A stretch of DNA of 20,232 nt from a virus. Taxonomy: Duplodnaviria > Heunggongvirae > Uroviricota > Caudoviricetes. Shown piece after piece: positions 2,325 through 14,117 of the stretch. Under the pieces are notes generated by a model that was not told the origin of the DNA, made no database searches, and worked only from the letters and a program-made list of their open reading frames with translations. The stretch lies in the IMG/VR virus record IMGVR_UViG_2728369554_000020; one strand, 5' to 3'. Made by a program: the position numbers and the translations under genes. How positions within the stretch are numbered: the stretch's first letter is position 1; each line of letters begins with the position of its first letter.

Positions 2325-3371
2325 TTAAAAATCTTTCGTTATTTCTCTGACCGTCTGATTAAAACGTTCCTCTTCCAGTTCCACGCCAATCGCCCTGCGT
2401 TCCAGCGACAGTGCTGCTTTTATTGTCGACCCCGACCCCATAAAAAAATCTGCGACCAAATCGCCTGGACGGCTGCTGGCAGTAATTATCTGACGCAACA
2501 TATCCGCCGGTTTTTCACAGGGATGTTTGCCCGGATAATACTGCACGGGCTTGTGCGTCCAGACATCCGTATAAGGAACGACAGCCGATACGGAAAAATA
2601 ACGCCGCAGTGATTTGTATTCCTCCAGCAGGCTGGCATATTGCCGGTTCAGTTCGCTGTATGTGCTGACCAGCTGGTGGTGTGGCTGCTCCAGTTCACCG
2701 CGCTGGTGTTTTTCTGCCGCCACACGTGCAAACAGCGCCTGCAGTTTACTGTAATCGGCCTCATTCGGTAACTGCCACTGACTGGTACCAAACCAGTGCG
2801 AAGCCATGTTTTTCTTTCCGGTGGCTTCTGCTATCTGTTTTGACGTTATCCCCAGTGATTCACGCGCATCACGGAAGTAAGAAATCAGCGGGGCCATCAC
2901 GTGCTGTTTAAGCTCGTGCCCCTTTGCCGCATAGCCGTCATTTTTTGGCTGGTATGGCCCCTGATAATGTTCAGCAAACAGAATGCGCTCTGTTGCCGGG
3001 AAATATGCCCGTAAACTTTCCTTATTGCACCCGTTCCAGCGTCCGGACGGCTTCGCCCAGATAATGTGGTTCAACACATTAAAACGTTCACGCATCATGA
3101 GTTCAATATCTGATGCCAGTCGATGGCCACAGAACAGGTAGAGACTTCCGGCAGGTTTCAGTACCCGCCAGAACTGCGCCAGACACTGAGCCAGCCATTT
3201 CAGGTAATCATCGTCCCCCTTCCACTGGTTATCCCAGCCCTCGGGCTTCACTTTAAAGTATGGCGGGTCTGTGACTATCAAATCGACAGAGTTTTCCGGT
3301 AAGGTCCGGATAAATTCCAGGCAATCAGCGTTGATTAACTCACAACTGGATATTTTTACAGTATTAGCCAT
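2325..3371 (-). CDS. DNA methyltransferase (N6-adenine/N4-cytosine type, beta-class motif order)
   Basis: 348 aa; DPPY motif (LIVTDPPYF) near the N-terminus and FxGxG (DFFMGSGST) near the C-terminus; no adjacent restriction endonuclease ORF. Confidence 0.85.
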   Translation of the reverse strand: MANTVKISSCELINADCLEFIRTLPENSVDLIVTDPPYFKVKPEGWDNQWKGDDDYLKWLAQCLAQFWRVLKPAGSLYLFCGHRLASDIELMMRERFNVLNHIIWAKPSGRWNGCNKESLRAYFPATERILFAEHYQGPYQPKNDGYAAKGHELKQHVMAPLISYFRDARESLGITSKQIAEATGKKNMASHWFGTSQWQLPNEADYSKLQALFARVAAEKHQRGELEQPHHQLVSTYSELNRQYASLLEEYKSLRRYFSVSAVVPYTDVWTHKPVQYYPGKHPCEKPADMLRQIITASSRPGDLVADFFMGSGSTIKAALSLERRAIGVELEEERFNQTVREITKDF

Positions 3372-3469
3372 AGATCAGTAAGCACTTCTCTGATAGGCTC
3401 ATACCGCTTTTGCGCAAAGCAGATGGCTGGCAGGTGCCGCTAACACCCACCAGCCGCCCATTACCACAA

Positions 3470-3496
3470 ATAAAAAAGCCTTCACTGCGGAAGGCG
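3470..3496 (-). terminator. intrinsic terminator at the end of the small winged-helix gene
   Basis: Minus-strand hairpin GCCTTCCGCAGTGAAGGC followed by TTTTTTATTT, overlapping the stop codon at 3482-3484. Confidence 0.45.
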
Positions 3497-3679
3497 TCTG
3501 TAACAACCGAACTGATAATCTGCCAGACCCGCCATAACAAGCTGGGTCAGTATTAACTGGCAGCGTTCGCGTGAAAGGTAAGTATTCTGCGCAATTTCCC
3601 CGACGGTCGCCGGTTCGGTGACGCTTAATTCATTAAACACCACTCTGGCGGTTTCGGTCATATCCTGCTGTTTTAGCAT
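3482..3679 (-). CDS. small winged-helix-like protein (65 aa), putative DNA-binding regulator
   Basis: ATG at 3679 with AAGGA about 10 nt upstream; segment PATVGEIAQNTYLSRERCQLILTQLVMAGL resembles a winged HTH. The track ORF start at 3772 has no RBS. Confidence 0.45.
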   Translation of the reverse strand: MLKQQDMTETARVVFNELSVTEPATVGEIAQNTYLSRERCQLILTQLVMAGLADYQFGCYRRLPQ

Positions 3680-3800
3680 GTCTTTTTTCCTTTTCTGGTT
3701 AACGTGACATACCAATAACTCTTGTCCAAAAAGCCAGCAAGCTGAAAGACCAGTATTAATAACCACCAGCACATTTAACGCACTGCGCTACTTTGCGGGC

Positions 3801-3827
3801 ACAAAAAACCCGCTCAGAGGCGGGTTC
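3801..3827 (-). terminator. intrinsic terminator downstream of the CPBP gene
   Basis: Minus-strand hairpin AACCCGCCTCTGAGCGGGTT followed by TTTTTTGT. Confidence 0.5.
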
Positions 3828-3965
3828 AGGCTATGAGGTGAAATAACCACTCTTAAAAGCATACATGATTTTTTACGTACGTAAATGCTTTGCCGTGCAT
3901 ATTTCTCATGCAAATGTCACATCCTGTTATTTTTCAGTGTTATAAATTTAAAGCCATAGAAAAAA

Positions 3966-4784
3966 TCAATTATGTTTTAAGAATGGATAGGTAAAGAATA
4001 ACAAGTGACACAGATTCAGACCAAAATGGAAAAGGGTTGCCACCCACAAGCGCCCACTCCACATCCATGACAATCCATACACAACACCAGATAACGTGGC
4101 AAATAATACAAGTAAAGCACCACCTGAATAGTGAAAAAAACCAAACAACAAAGACGCCACAATTAACGCAATCAATGGAGACGTTACTTCTGATAGCCGT
4201 GATTGAATATACCCTCTAAATAATGATTCCTCTGCCAGAGACACAAAAAACAAATTAGCCAATATAAACTCTGGCAACCACTCAGGAAAATGAATCTCTG
4301 GTTTTAACCCACCAAAAAAAACAGCCAAAAACAGGATAAGAGGAACAGAGAGCAACAGAGCCCCCCATTTCCACAAAGACACTTCTGATTTCACTTCTTT
4401 TTTAAACAAAGAAGCTGTACACAGGACTAACAAAAATGGCACCAGCGCTTTATCAAAATTAAAATACATTGTATAGGGAGTGCTTTGAGGTCCGACAGTA
4501 ACAGACTTTAGCACTACAGGATTGTGAAACCCTGGCCATAAATGGAAAGATAATGCTATGGCTGATAAAACTATGCCAGCTTCATATATGGATTTAGCCC
4601 AGGCGTTATATTTCCAGTTGAACTTCAAAATAATAAAAAAAACGATTGTAGAAACAAAAAACAACACAGGCCAATCAATAATATCATTAAGCATAGCCAG
4701 GACAACAGACACCGTTAACAATGAAAAAGCCACTACCTTATGCCAACTGAGAGTTGACAGTGCCAGTGCTAACACAATCCACAT
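3966..4784 (-). CDS. CPBP-family intramembrane metalloprotease (Abi / CAAX-protease-like)
   Basis: 272 aa multi-TM protein with EExxxR (EESLFRG), FxxxH (FGFFH) and HxxxN (HFGLN) motifs in the expected order; ATG at 4784 preceded by AAGGAG; clearly AT-rich relative to flanking phage genes. Confidence 0.8.
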   Translation of the reverse strand: MWIVLALALSTLSWHKVVAFSLLTVSVVLAMLNDIIDWPVLFFVSTIVFFIILKFNWKYNAWAKSIYEAGIVLSAIALSFHLWPGFHNPVVLKSVTVGPQSTPYTMYFNFDKALVPFLLVLCTASLFKKEVKSEVSLWKWGALLLSVPLILFLAVFFGGLKPEIHFPEWLPEFILANLFFVSLAEESLFRGYIQSRLSEVTSPLIALIVASLLFGFFHYSGGALLVLFATLSGVVYGLSWMWSGRLWVATLFHFGLNLCHLLFFTYPFLKHN

Positions 4785-10336: not shown

Positions 10337-11083
10337 TTACTTCACAACCCTTAAATGACTGACATTTGAACGCCAGCTCTCCCAGTTAAAATTCACCCAG
10401 CGACCACCGTTCATGGTCATGCGGTCCATCACGCGCTCACCAAGCAGCGTATTCATTGCCGTATGGTTCAGGTTCGTCAGCATCCCGACGCTGTGCATCG
10501 AGGCTGTTCTGCGATCGACTATCTGGTTCAGTGTGACCTGTTCGTTACGCGTATCCCGCTGCATACCAATTTCATCCAGGACAAGCAGGTCAACTTCACA
10601 CAACCCCTGCAAAAATTTTTCGCCCGAGTTTTTGTTGTCGTAGTTGCCGTGTAACGCCAGCATCACATCCGCCACCGTCACCACAATCACGCTGCGACCT
10701 TTCGCCAGAAGATGGTTGCCAATGGCTGCTGCCAGATGATTCTTTCCGGTACCCGGCTTACCGCTGAACACGAAATTTGTGCATCCGGTCATCATTTCTT
10801 CCGCGATGGATTTTGCCTGGCTCAGCGCGTGGCGTTGGCCATCGTTCTTCACCTGGTAATTCGCAAACGAACACTTCTGGTGCAACAGTTGGATACCGGA
10901 ACGCTTCATAATTTTCTCCACCCGGATCTGGCGATTCTGGCGGTTAATTTCCTCACTACGCTTTCGCCCTTCTGCAAGCTGCCACTCTCGCCACTCGTCC
11001 ACTGTCCGGTACGGCGCGGTTACATGCTGCGGGGCCAGCTTACGGATGCGTTCAAGAACACCACCTGCCGCAATATTTTTCAT
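10337..11083 (-). CDS. DnaC-like helicase loader (AAA+ ATPase)
   Basis: 248 aa; Walker A GKPGTGKNHLAAA and Walker B LLVLDEIG; follows the initiator gene. Confidence 0.85.
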   Translation of the reverse strand: MKNIAAGGVLERIRKLAPQHVTAPYRTVDEWREWQLAEGRKRSEEINRQNRQIRVEKIMKRSGIQLLHQKCSFANYQVKNDGQRHALSQAKSIAEEMMTGCTNFVFSGKPGTGKNHLAAAIGNHLLAKGRSVIVVTVADVMLALHGNYDNKNSGEKFLQGLCEVDLLVLDEIGMQRDTRNEQVTLNQIVDRRTASMHSVGMLTNLNHTAMNTLLGERVMDRMTMNGGRWVNFNWESWRSNVSHLRVVK

Positions 11084-11089
11084 AACCCG

Positions 11090-12199
11090 TTACCCCCTGA
11101 ATCCCGGCGGAATTTCGGTGTCCGGTTCAGAAATGTGATTCACACAACGCTGGTTGTTCGTGCCGCTTACCGGGAGCAACCAGGGGTTTTCAAAATTCCG
11201 GTCCGGTCCAAAAAACGTCGTCGCTCGCTGAACAAATTCCGTTCCCGCTTTCCCGGTAGCAGCCAGGTATCTTGTGTAACGCCTCACACCATCCAGCATG
11301 GCCTCTGGTGGCACCCCCTCGCGCAATCTGGCCTTCCAGGCACTGAATGCGGATTTCTTCGGGTTTGCCCCGGCACGCAACGGGTATTCCCGCCAGACCT
11401 GTTCGAACACATCCGGATAATCCACTCGTCCCACAGGCCGCCCGGTGTTTTCCGGGACTACCCGATCGGCTTCCCGCTGAATGGCGGAATCGGCTTCAGG
11501 CTGCTGCAGTTGGTGTGATTGCTCCGACCCTGCGGTCATCGCCTGCTGCACAGCGCCCGAATCGGCTTTCAGCGCATACGCCGAATCGGCTTCCGGTGTC
11601 GTGCCTGCTGGCTGACCAGAATTTACGGTCTGAACATCCCCTGCCTGGTTCATGGTGTTTTTTTCGCCATGAACCATAGTGTTTTTGTCCTGTTCCTGTT
11701 CTTTCTCCTGCTCCTGTTCTTGGCTTCGAAGCCCCTTAAAAGCCCCTTCGAAGCCCCTTACCGAATTTCGGCTATTATTCCGCCTCACATCCAGATGGAA
11801 ATCCGTTTTATATCTGTCGTAAAACGCTGACAGAAAAGCGTTTTCAGGTAATGATGCATACTCATTCCTGACACCTGCACAACGGTTATCGCCGGGCTTC
11901 AACGTTTCCCCAACCTGCCAGGCTGCCATTTCATGGACCCAGACCATCTCTGCATCATGGTCATAGCTACAAAAACCAGCTTCAACAGCCCTTTTAAGCC
12001 CCTTTGAAGCCCCTTCCAGACCAAGCCCGGTTTCATGAGCAAGGTATAAAACTGGCAGGTAATACAAACCCAGCATATTTGCGTGAGGGGATGTCATCAG
12101 GTAAAAAGCAACAACTTGCGCTTCTGCACCCGCCTTTCTAAGTTCTCTCCCCGTTTCTCCCAGCCAGAATCGCGGAGAAACTTTTGCGTAATCACGCAT
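11090..12199 (-). CDS. replication initiator / replisome organiser (lambda O analogue, YdaU-like)
   Basis: ATG at 12199 preceded by GAGGT; the track start at 12310 has no RBS. Central acidic Q/E-rich linker and repeated EADSA segments; gene contains iteron-like DNA repeats. Confidence 0.7.
   Translation of the reverse strand: MRDYAKVSPRFWLGETGRELRKAGAEAQVVAFYLMTSPHANMLGLYYLPVLYLAHETGLGLEGASKGLKRAVEAGFCSYDHDAEMVWVHEMAAWQVGETLKPGDNRCAGVRNEYASLPENAFLSAFYDRYKTDFHLDVRRNNSRNSVRGFEGAFKGLRSQEQEQEKEQEQDKNTMVHGEKNTMNQAGDVQTVNSGQPAGTTPEADSAYALKADSGAVQQAMTAGSEQSHQLQQPEADSAIQREADRVVPENTGRPVGRVDYPDVFEQVWREYPLRAGANPKKSAFSAWKARLREGVPPEAMLDGVRRYTRYLAATGKAGTEFVQRATTFFGPDRNFENPWLLPVSGTNNQRCVNHISEPDTEIPPGFRG
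11727..11759. repeat. three tandem 11-bp iteron-like repeats (cgAAGCCCCTT / aaAAGCCCCTT / cgAAGCCCCTT)
   Basis: Core AAGCCCCTT at 11729, 11740 and 11751. Confidence 0.8.
11987..12015. repeat. second cluster of the same 11-bp period repeat (AGCCCTTTT / AAGCCCCTT / AAGCCCCTT)
   Basis: Copies at about 11987, 11996 and 12007, roughly 250 bp from the first cluster, inside the same gene. Confidence 0.75.
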
Positions 12200-12277
12200 G
12201 GCTACCTCATCTGGTGCCGAACCTTCCTCCGGATATAATCTGTGGTTCCCAATCGACAGAACCAGAGGAGGTTCGAC

Positions 12278-12733
12278 ATGTATTTTTTGAAAAGCCTTTA
12301 TCAGGCTCATGTATTAAATGTTGCAGCAACAAACCGCTGGTGTAACAGCCCCGAAATGCTCCCGGATTACAGAGCCTGGCTGCGCGCCGAAACATACCTT
12401 CGTCTCGACATATTGATTAGCGAACTTCAAAAAGAGACTGCATCCATTCATAACCTTCAGGGTATCGACGCTGTTCGCATTCTGGTATCGCGCCATAGTG
12501 CTCTCTCAATAATTGAAGTGCGTCATCTCTCTTTTTCTGAACTGATTTTCTTGCTTCAACCAGCTCTGGAATCAGCGAATATCCCACAGGAAGTGATCCA
12601 ATACCCACCTCATGTTGACGAGCAGTTACAAGATGTGCCATACAACCAGCGTGCTGGATTGACTCCCTGCTCAGAGGCTGAATGGGATCACTCTCTGCTG
12701 AAGAAATACCAAGATTTGTATAATCCTCAATAA
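12278..12733 (+). CDS. alternative antisense ORF (151 aa) with strong RBS
   Basis: ATG at 12278 preceded by GGAGG (12266-12270) with 7-nt spacer; overlaps the minus-strand ORF for 317 nt. Hand-counted GC by codon position is about 63/32/40%. Confidence 0.3.
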   Translation: MYFLKSLYQAHVLNVAATNRWCNSPEMLPDYRAWLRAETYLRLDILISELQKETASIHNLQGIDAVRILVSRHSALSIIEVRHLSFSELIFLLQPALESANIPQEVIQYPPHVDEQLQDVPYNQRAGLTPCSEAEWDHSLLKKYQDLYNPQ

Positions 12734-12926
12734 GCCCGGCACACGCTTCTGCATCAGCCAGCTTTATTCTGGTTTCCTTGCGCTGTTCTCTGGCTGACAA
12801 ACGCCAGAGCAGCGCATTAGCTTTATGTATCAACCACTCTGCCAGCTCCACATCAGATAAACCGCCACGCCAGATGTGCGGACTGTTTTCGTAAACGCTC
12901 AGTGTCAATTTTTTGTCATTACTCAT
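12417..12926 (-). CDS. hypothetical protein (about 170 aa) between the YdaT-like and initiator genes
   Basis: Co-oriented with the operon; ATG at 12926 ten nt after the upstream stop; weak RBS. In the overlap with the plus-strand ORF its frame has G at codon position 1 in about 35% of codons (hand count). Confidence 0.45.
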   Translation of the reverse strand: MSNDKKLTLSVYENSPHIWRGGLSDVELAEWLIHKANALLWRLSAREQRKETRIKLADAEACAGLIEDYTNLGISSAESDPIQPLSRESIQHAGCMAHLVTARQHEVGIGSLPVGYSLIPELVEARKSVQKKRDDALQLLREHYGAIPECEQRRYPEGYEWMQSLFEVR

Positions 12927-12939
12927 ATTTATTACCCAA

Positions 12940-13365
12940 TTAATGCACAGCCAGAGTGTTTCCTGCCGGGCCACCACGATTCATCTGGTTGAAACCAGCA
13001 ATCGCCACTGCGACAAAATCATCAGCGTCTCTCACCAGTCGTTCCCGCGTCTCCACCAGTTCCCGAAACCAGGCTGAACTGTGGCTGCGCATTCGGGCCA
13101 CCAGCAGAGGTGGCATTGCTTTTTCGATCGCTGGTAACAACGCCTGAATTTTTTCAACAGCATCAGGGGTGTCTTTCTCTACCCAGCGGAAAATTTTCTG
13201 GGTATTACGAGCCAGGGCTTCCGGATGGCTGTCGTCATACAGTTCAGGGAACGTCATACCCAATTCGAAATACGCTTTGGTAATTTTCGCAGCCGGTACT
13301 TTTTCGCCGTCCGGATGCGCCCAGGCATTCATCGCCATGCGGATGTGTTCATGCCTGATTTTCAT
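12940..13365 (-). CDS. YdaT-like protein (141 aa) in the cII-equivalent position
   Basis: ATG at 13365 with GGAG 8 nt upstream; N-terminal MKIRHEHI resembles my recollection of Rac YdaT; overlaps the Cro-like gene end. Confidence 0.6.
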   Translation of the reverse strand: MKIRHEHIRMAMNAWAHPDGEKVPAAKITKAYFELGMTFPELYDDSHPEALARNTQKIFRWVEKDTPDAVEKIQALLPAIEKAMPPLLVARMRSHSSAWFRELVETRERLVRDADDFVAVAIAGFNQMNRGGPAGNTLAVH

Positions 13366-13624
13366 GAATCAACTCCGGTTCATCTTGTGTGTTAGCCTTA
13401 CATCCAACAGATAAACCGTCGGTTGGATCCGGGTATAAATCCGGCCGTAATTCATGAGGAGTCACCCCAGTTGCAAGGTAAATTTGACGGACCCGTTCCC
13501 CTGTCGGCACCCGTCCATTGTATTCATTTGCCCATTTGTGTATTTGAGACGGCCAGGCCCCTATCGCGCGCCCTAGTGGGCGAATACCACCGGCAATCTT
13601 TATTGCTTTGTCCAAAGCAGTCAT
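13349..13624 (-). CDS. Cro-like HTH regulator (YdaS/DicC-like)
   Basis: ATG at 13624 with GGAGG 5 nt upstream; 91 aa; divergent from the repressor gene. Confidence 0.65.
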   Translation of the reverse strand: MTALDKAIKIAGGIRPLGRAIGAWPSQIHKWANEYNGRVPTGERVRQIYLATGVTPHELRPDLYPDPTDGLSVGCKANTQDEPELIHENQA

Positions 13625-13727: not shown

Positions 13728-14117
13728 ATGGATATGAGAAAAAAGCAATACGACACCCCGCTGGCGGAGAGATTAGATGCGATCTCGCAACAGCATCATT
13801 TAAGCGGTTCAGATTTAGCGCGCATCGCTGGAGTGGGCCGTTCGTCAGTTAATGCCTGGAAAAAGAGAGGGACAATCAGCAAAGATTCCGCGGCCAAAAT
13901 AGCGGAAGCCACAAATGTTTCCCTTTCCTGGCTACTGACGGGAAAGGAGGATACGAGCAGGGAAGTGCTTGATGATGATGAGAAAGCCCTGCTTGACGTT
14001 TACAGAAACCTACCTCCTGTAGAACGCAGAAATATGCTTGCAGCTTTTCAAATGCGACTTCAAAAATTGACTGAATTTTACTCGGAATACGTTGATCCGA
14101 TAACACGTCAAAAATAA
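13728..14117 (+). CDS. prophage repressor (DicA/cI-like, XRE-family HTH)
   Basis: 129 aa; N-terminal HTH (SGSDLARIAGVGRSSVNAWKKRG); no SD; TATAAT at 13716-13721 only 6 nt before the ATG. Confidence 0.8.
   Translation: MDMRKKQYDTPLAERLDAISQQHHLSGSDLARIAGVGRSSVNAWKKRGTISKDSAAKIAEATNVSLSWLLTGKEDTSREVLDDDEKALLDVYRNLPPVERRNMLAAFQMRLQKLTEFYSEYVDPITRQK

Follow-up and report, generated by a model that had tools for sequence, protein, structure and literature searches.

An antisense gene pair with a probable double-coding overlap in the early region of enterobacterial prophages

Whether long antisense overlaps in bacterial genomes encode two functional proteins is disputed. The antisense open reading frames (ORFs) of Escherichia coli O157:H7 are reportedly evolutionarily young and narrowly distributed. 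They include ano, asa, pop and others and, going by the abstracts of the reports, are nested within an annotated gene or run antisense to one; their support comes mainly from RNA sequencing and ribosome profiling (PMC5960689, PMC6294744, PMC7103648, PMC9927249). The ORFs opposite dnaK that are filed as PF10712 are shadow ORFs, which leave selection on the host gene unaltered, and surveys find most long antiparallel ORFs to be unselected (bioRxiv 10.1101/724807). Against this background, the pair of genes described here stands out. It lies at positions 12278-12926 of a 20,232-nt stretch of Caudoviricetes DNA (IMG/VR record IMGVR_UViG_2728369554_000020), the whole of which we refer to as the window and on which a lambdoid prophage has its immunity and early region, reading leftward on the minus strand. 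The ORF coordinates bear out the claim of an initial annotation that two mutually antisense ORFs overlap here by 317 nt. We call them the plus and minus genes after their strands; the starts of both were picked by aligning relatives. The features of the pair are as follows:

12278-12733, plus strand (ATG at 12278, stop at 12733): plus gene, ECs1072-family phage-associated protein of 151 amino acids (aa), opposed to the early operon
12926-12417, minus strand (ATG at 12926, stop at 12417): minus gene, phrog_8304 protein of 169 aa, co-oriented with the ydaS-ydaT-replication operon
12417-12733, both strands: probable dual-coding segment of 317 nt (257-323 nt in relatives, in constant phase)
12734-12926, minus strand: the 64 N-terminal codons belonging to the minus gene only, intergenic according to RefSeq
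12278-12416, plus strand: the 46 N-terminal codons belonging to the plus gene only, between the minus stop and the initiator start
12200-12277, plus strand: conserved non-coding leader, the probable promoter of the plus gene

Lying on opposite strands, the two ORFs share well over the 90 nt that define an antiparallel overlapping pair, and purifying selection was detected on both frames. Like the O157:H7 cases, the pair involves coding ORFs opposite an annotated gene, in the same group of organisms, of a kind that annotation pipelines typically miss. Unlike in those cases, neither gene lies wholly within its partner, both begin with a private N-terminal half under strong selection, and the argument is a comparative one, drawn from sequences of seven genera with identities down to about 30%. 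The pair resembles the PF10712 shadow ORFs in that its long antisense frames are held in protein databases as families, but differs from them in that both frames are selected. Because the overlap is partial, each gene provides an internal control region under ordinary purifying selection, and the arrangement and its phase are kept across seven enterobacterial genera.

The convergent layout also has parallels among the control regions of temperate phages. In phage lambda, oop transcription begins in the cII-O interval, at the end next to the replication genes, and proceeds toward cII, antisense to the early rightward operon, giving a 77-nt non-coding RNA with its own terminator. In coliphages 186 and P2, face-to-face lytic and lysogenic promoters enforce mutually exclusive expression by transcriptional interference, and the transcripts overlap over a short stretch of their 5' leaders. 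The plus transcription unit shares its position and orientation, at the replication-gene end and pointing at cII, with the lambda oop promoter and with the PaQ antisense transcript, which is described together with CII in passages of PMC9986795. Unlike oop, however, it encodes a 151-aa product that is under purifying selection, a search for a nearby terminator was negative, and its opposite-strand target is a dedicated gene and not cII. It does not fit the definition of an oop-type antisense RNA, and Rfam returned nothing beyond one sub-threshold snoRNA hit. As in 186 and P2, transcription in a temperate-phage early control region would be convergent, judging here from the genes alone, but the pair overlaps by 260-320 nt of two coding sequences.

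Taken together, our comparisons make it quite likely that both ORFs are genuine protein-coding genes, and we put the probability that they are genes with real double coding at roughly 0.7. The best reading is that the two genes make up a portable cassette, convergent in orientation, and that their 3' halves would occupy opposite strands of the same DNA in a fixed phase. Real double coding would extend over at least about 170 nt, and probably over the whole 260-320 nt.

The phase of the overlap is such that the first codon positions of the two frames face each other, plus second positions face minus third positions, and plus third positions face minus second positions. Since the wobble position of either frame is the second position of the other, the substitution pattern readily separates the hypotheses. 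The relatives compared were drawn from further E. coli prophages (L082-L085; 74-89% protein identity), from Salmonella prophages (L077-L081 and L086-L090; about 50%) and from IMG/VR viral contigs (L037-L040, L075 and L125-L187; 30-45%). Within the E. coli group, substitutions in the three position classes (in the order plus first/minus first, plus second/minus third, plus third/minus second) numbered 12/7/22 in the plus-only segment and 9/23/7 in the minus-only segment, and were thus concentrated on the third position of the respective frame. In the overlap they numbered 21/23/31. Divergence between E. coli and Salmonella in the unique parts followed the usual codon pattern of third above first above second position (0.37/0.23/0.60 for plus, 0.34/0.27/0.54 for minus), and in the overlap the three position classes were equal (0.36/0.35/0.38).

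Silent changes told the same story. By the Nei-Gojobori method (NG86), the ratio of non-synonymous to synonymous substitution rates (dN/dS) was 0.06-0.4 in the unique part of the plus gene and 0.06-0.34 in that of the minus gene; the apparent value for plus within the overlap was 0.2-0.9. Between the window and the Salmonella relative L086, the proportion of synonymous differences (pS) fell from 0.92 in the unique part to 0.36 in the overlap for plus, and from 0.78 to 0.26 for minus. Similarly, of the conserved plus residues, 60% were specified by a different codon in the unique part and 37% in the overlap; for minus the figures were 50% and 33%. Because the synonymous rate is down in the overlap for both frames, each frame slows the silent sites of the other. 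This reduction in pS, together with the equalised codon positions, does not fit the definition of a shadow ORF.

Overall, purifying selection within the overlap was moderate for plus, with an omega of 0.44-0.64 in a Wei-Zhang-type comparison of mutation classes among close pairs; for minus it ranged from weak to moderate. Most of the overlap is under tighter constraint in the plus frame. The exception is the stretch around 12698-12727, in which minus is the better conserved frame: its Y-x-x-L-G-x-S motif does not vary there, and the C-terminus of the plus protein does. Conserved residues encoded in the overlap include E135 and W136 of the plus protein and Y69, L72, G73, S75, P113 and L122 of the minus protein. 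Since the minus residues from Y69 to L122 place constraint as far as at least about position 12560, they imply at least 170 nt of double coding.

The initial annotation had treated the two ORFs as an either/or choice with a slight lean toward minus, based on composition. Its hand counts over the overlap were accurate (GC by codon position in the plus frame of about 63/32/40%, recomputed as 62.5/32.7/40.4%; G at the first position of about 35% of minus codons, recomputed as 34.6%). However, because both frames share the first position, GC by position is unable to tell the ORFs apart and does not favour minus. Nor does the choice itself fit the data, as both frames carry a coding signature; purifying selection on one frame only, which had been named as the refuting outcome, was not what we found.

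A further line of evidence is that the double open frame is itself preserved. Fourteen lineages, reaching down to about 30% protein identity, keep both ORFs open and in the same phase to one another, with overlaps of 257-323 nt where the two are intact. Minus stops fall into only two positional classes, giving overlaps of 257-269 or 317-323 nt, and at every locus retrieved through the private N-terminal motif of the minus protein the plus ORF was intact. We assessed chance with a shuffle test, in which one protein is held fixed, its synonymous codons are shuffled and the openness of the antisense frame is scored. For the window, the antisense frame stayed open through the overlap in 0.1% of shuffles with plus fixed and 1.9% with minus fixed. 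The double open frame was likewise beyond chance in 13 further lineages, the other frame being open in 0.1-36% (plus fixed) and 0.1-14% (minus fixed) of shuffles across lineages. Fisher's method combined these into p = 4.6e-7 for the case that only plus codes (four broken lineages entering as p = 1) and p = 1.2e-11 for the case that only minus codes. Both values are approximate only, as they treat the lineages as independent.

As a control, the same tests were applied to a 268-aa ORF on the plus strand at 10712-11518, antisense to the DnaC-like and initiator genes. This frame was open in 26% of shuffles, and codon-position divergence of DnaC was unchanged beneath it (0.07/0.11/0.42 versus 0.12/0.10/0.41). 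It behaves as a compositional shadow ORF, and since it fails the tests that the pair passes, these do separate the two situations. A similarly long antisense frame is also present in the L040 homolog.

Both products belong to protein families. The plus ORF matches NCBIfam NF033230 with 106.7 bits (cutoff 70; E 1e-30) over residues 4-145 of 151, and plus-type proteins of distant relatives match phrog_5286. The minus ORF matches PHROGs phrog_8304 over its full length (1-169 of 169; E 3.9e-120), and the minus-type proteins of the distant relatives L038 and L040 match this family at E about 6e-21. These three families are without function and none records the mutual overlap of the genes: RefSeq omits one gene of the pair, PHROGs lists both as unrelated families, and the gene callers behind a large protein collection choose either plus or minus.

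AlphaFold2 predicts the plus protein with confidence through its overlapped part (mean predicted local distance difference test, pLDDT, 88.6; predicted template modelling score, pTM, 0.85; nine helices), in a model built from only 10 sequences, and a search for structural relatives of the model found none. The plus product is accordingly predicted to be a compact all-helical protein of unassigned fold; its N-terminal part carries the conserved motif PDYRAWLRAETYLRLD. The minus protein has the N-terminal motif S15-P16-x-I18-W19-x-G21-G22-L23, all seven named residues of which (S, P, I, W, G, G and L) are invariant. PADLOC (E <= 0.1) gave no match for either protein or for distant relatives, and Pfam (E <= 0.1) none for the two window proteins, to which that run was confined; neither protein belongs to a toxin, antitoxin or defence model in these collections. 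Sequence searches of PDB with both proteins gave chance-level matches only (E 0.015-0.08), tblastn of both against 50,697 deposited phage genomes found nothing, and the same was true of scans of GTDB genome contigs.

The start regions are informative for both genes. The plus ATG at 12278 is preceded by AGGAGG at 12266-12271 and the spacer TTCGAC; the GGAGG pointed out in the initial annotation is therefore present (12267-12271), at a spacing of 6 and not 7 nt. In almost every lineage the plus start is preceded by AGGAGGTTCGAC-ATG. Upstream lies a 75-nt non-coding block with an invariant TGGTGCCGAAC at 12212-12222 and an ATA-containing -10-like box (TATAAT at 12234-12239 in the window), and 28 columns of this leader show no variation among 16 sequences, the proteins of which share just 30-50% identity. 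It also contains a 13-bp inverted repeat (12218-12232/12262-12275), 87% paired over the 16 sequences as against 31-57% when the partner is slid, which could sequester the plus Shine-Dalgarno sequence. The repeat is conserved by sequence, with only one covarying pair; folding z-scores of the leader were -3.2 and -4.1, and RNAalifold retained just a 5-bp hairpin without covariation. The 12200-12277 block may be a promoter, an operator or an RNA element, on either strand. Readings of TGGTGCCGAAC as sigma-54 or tRNA-like were unsupported on inspection, and a possible YdaT operator at 12413-12430 was discarded: it has two mismatches, the window contains five sites where two are expected, and there is no conservation in the E. 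coli group.

With its NF033230 score, RefSeq annotation, confidently predicted fold and conserved initiation region, the plus ORF is real and bears out the antisense gene of unknown function that had been suggested, but it is only partly overlapped and so not embedded. As for minus, the ribosome-binding site described as weak is weak in the window, where a GGGT-type signal lies 13 nt after the ydaT stop. This is not a general trait: most relatives have an AGGAG- or GGAGG-type Shine-Dalgarno sequence at the minus start, which makes the weak site a peculiarity of the E. coli lineage.

Several points weigh against double coding. A sequence search of the supplements of an enterohaemorrhagic E. coli (EHEC) transcription start site paper and a translatomics paper found neither ORF, the -10-like box of the plus leader is conserved in some lineages only, and a simple sigma-70 scan called no promoter for the plus gene. 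The remaining points concern the minus frame and are considered with the alternatives they favour.

The alternative that survives best, although we think it unlikely, is that both ORFs are genes but that double coding is short, the minus protein being functional in its N-terminal 65-120 residues and its tail un- or barely selected. Mean pairwise identity of the minus protein over 15 lineages is 0.63-0.69 for 12818-12907 and only 0.01-0.23 for 12417-12517, so that the last 35 or so residues are hardly conserved, and the ORF ends vary among lineages, giving proteins of 147-178 aa. In the overlap the apparent NG86 dN/dS of minus is 0.5-1.6, reaching 1 or more in some pairs, and its omega is only 0.60-0.86, from pairs that are not independent. 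The AlphaFold2 model points in the same direction, with pLDDT low past residue 70. Against a short overlap, the conserved minus residues Y69, L72, G73, S75, P113 and L122 all lie inside the shared segment, the minus stops occupy two positional classes and are not random, and the avoidance of stops is significant.

A second alternative, which we judge improbable to a greater degree, follows RefSeq in taking only plus as a gene; minus would then be a shadow frame and 12734-12939 a conserved intergenic region. Indeed, in identical E. coli genomes the PGAP/RefSeq annotation includes the plus ORF, does not include the minus ORF and leaves 12734-12939 empty. The predicted minus structure is of low confidence overall (pLDDT 57, pTM 0.27, long helices), the frame is open in up to 0.24-0.36 of plus-fixed shuffles in three lineages, and the ORF is broken or missing in four lineages and three genomes. 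L037 and L088 have frameshifted copies of it, the copy in L132/L133 is missing its N-terminus, and L080 has none. The three genomes are complete E. coli sequences (H51-H53) with 740 bases against the 741-base query, i.e. a 1-nt deletion. In L188 (NZ_CP027582.1, H51), the one of the three in which the deletion was mapped, the lost base, 12893, belongs to a short run of T; its loss shifts the minus frame at codon 12 and leaves the plus protein identical. This may be genuine allelic variation or a sequencing error in the homopolymer. Furthermore, near-identical E. coli copies show 3 synonymous and 13 non-synonymous changes in minus, and 8 synonymous, 6 non-synonymous and 2 nonsense changes in plus. 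Recent constraint on minus thus seems to be weak, which would not be surprising in decaying prophages.

If minus were a shadow frame, however, it would be hard to account for 12734-12926. This segment is three-base periodic in the minus frame, with the low dN/dS given above and an invariant peptide motif, and contains no other open frame. Most lineages also have a Shine-Dalgarno sequence before the minus start, and the synonymous sites of plus are slowed only where the minus frame runs. Finally, eight positions allow a stop in the minus frame that is silent in plus, and minus has nevertheless remained open in the 14 lineages (p = 4.6e-7).

The converse, that only minus is a gene and plus its shadow, is very hard to sustain: minus is co-oriented with ydaS-ydaT and the replication genes, fits the operon and matches phrog_8304, and the sigma-70 scan is silent on plus, but the unique part of plus has a dN/dS of 0.06-0.4, its predicted fold is confident through the overlap, its Shine-Dalgarno sequence and leader are nearly invariant, its frame is intact at all loci ascertained through minus and likewise at those with a broken minus, shuffling yields p = 1.2e-11, and its family has a curated NCBIfam model with members in seven genera.

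The plus ORF was intact in every lineage examined except the L085 contig, which has W34*. This nonsense allele (window position 12378) was also seen in one IMG/VR contig, and a second, E98* (12569), in a single IMG/VR contig. At plus residue 104 the window has the minority Q104, P104 being found in 30 of 36 loci (L001-L036, mostly IMG/VR contigs).

Accepting double coding, a model for expression can be outlined. The minus gene, situated between ydaT and the initiator, would be expressed as part of the early rightward (PR-type) transcript. The plus gene would have a promoter of its own, within the conserved 75-nt block at the end nearest the initiator. Since the two transcripts would be fully complementary over 260-320 nt, transcribing one should hold down the other, by collision of polymerases and by formation of duplex RNA. 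On this model the lysogen, with its early operon silent, would produce the plus protein, and the minus protein would appear during lytic development. We put forward this logic of convergent expression and mutual exclusion only tentatively. Growth-phase-dependent signal for ECs1072 was reported on a Sakai array without induction (PMC2241611), which is weak evidence consistent with plus expression in lysogens; this array paper was the only one that a full-text literature search for ECs1072 returned. A search for a terminator of the plus transcript found none before 13097. At 13097-13114 on the plus strand, inside ydaT and about 365 nt past the plus stop, a terminator-like hairpin, GCCACCAGCAGAGGTGGC, precedes a T run. 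The plus transcript could end here, and one such site is within chance expectation.

As to function, the most likely role would be that of an antagonistic pair, a prophage-expressed effector and its lytic-phase counterpart, although in absolute terms we rate even this as doubtful. A fuller version, about as speculative, is a self-contained bistable module in which a helical plus effector is opposed at the protein level by a lytic-phase minus partner and exclusion is hard-wired by the opposite-strand 3' halves. In such a module neither gene could be transferred, expressed or mutated without the other, and the 75-nt leader would be a shared control element. Situated between a cII-like regulator and the replication genes, the cassette could influence prophage induction. 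Because single-base changes can stop one frame and be silent in the other, dual coding is directly testable, and with the cassette present in a genetically tractable E. coli prophage the pair offers a rare and easily tested case.

The cassette recurs among enterobacterial prophages. An identical sequence is present in E. coli strain R1, and 455 of 5426 complete E. coli genomes (about 8%), mostly EHEC, carry the segment, counted as coverage of at least 80% of its length and nearly all at 99% identity or more. The ECs1072 family extends over seven genera, including Klebsiella, Enterobacter, Serratia, Raoultella and Yokenella, and the minus family comprises 22 clusters at 50% identity among 1.84 billion representatives, almost all of 146-197 aa. 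The prophage backbones differ. In E. coli the cassette follows ydaT and stands ahead of three unrelated replication modules, and in Salmonella it is flanked on one side by Cox-type early genes and on the other by Ash/derepression/exonuclease VIII genes. With a single exception, the minus-type gene comes after the early operon. In that exception, L088, the cassette (3001-3705, with minus frameshifted) is on the repressor side, between integrase-proximal genes and a helix-turn-helix repressor, which indicates that it moves between positions. A mosaic joint was seen at window position 12926-12990: L188 is 99.7% identical across 12200-12940 and densely divergent from 12988, inside ydaT. The cassette therefore travels separately from ydaT.

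The neighbouring genes of the window are those of a lambdoid early region:

13728-14117, plus strand: CI-type repressor, immunity region
13349-13624, minus strand: ydaS/cro-like gene, early region
12940-13365, minus strand: ydaT, cII-like regulator (PF06254, 39.2 bits; phrog_163), directly upstream of the minus gene in the operon
11090-12199, minus strand: replication initiator/helicase-loader-like gene, start at 12199 and not 12310
10337-11083, minus strand: DnaC-like loader, early region

The initiator begins at 12199. The initial annotation had left the choice between this start and 12310 open; the former agrees with the PGAP start and with PHROG profile alignments, which begin at residue 38 of the long 406-aa version, and 12200-12277 is conserved as non-coding sequence beside unrelated downstream genes.

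YdaT of CP-933P has been characterised, and the keyword-matched passages of the two reports do not mention genes downstream of ydaT (PMC9986795, PMC8630535). In the window, CTGATTTTCATGAATCAA at 13355-13372, at the end of ydaS and the start of ydaT, is the YdaT operator TTGATTN6AATCAA with one mismatch, and corresponds to the position of OM in CP-933P as given in the relevant passages of PMC9986795.

Finally, a second antisense ORF pair was observed in two of the Salmonella prophages, at 3554-4009 (plus) and 3771-4250 (minus) in L080 and at 719-1174 and 936-1415 in L081. Its members, of 151 aa and 138-159 aa, overlap by 239 nt, and the minus member matches phrog_37051. Homology to the window pair was considered and found no support, with no detectable sequence similarity and hhalign probabilities of 0.2% and 3%. 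This second pair may be an analogous cassette; in L080 it lies directly beside the ECs1072 homolog that has lost its own partner.

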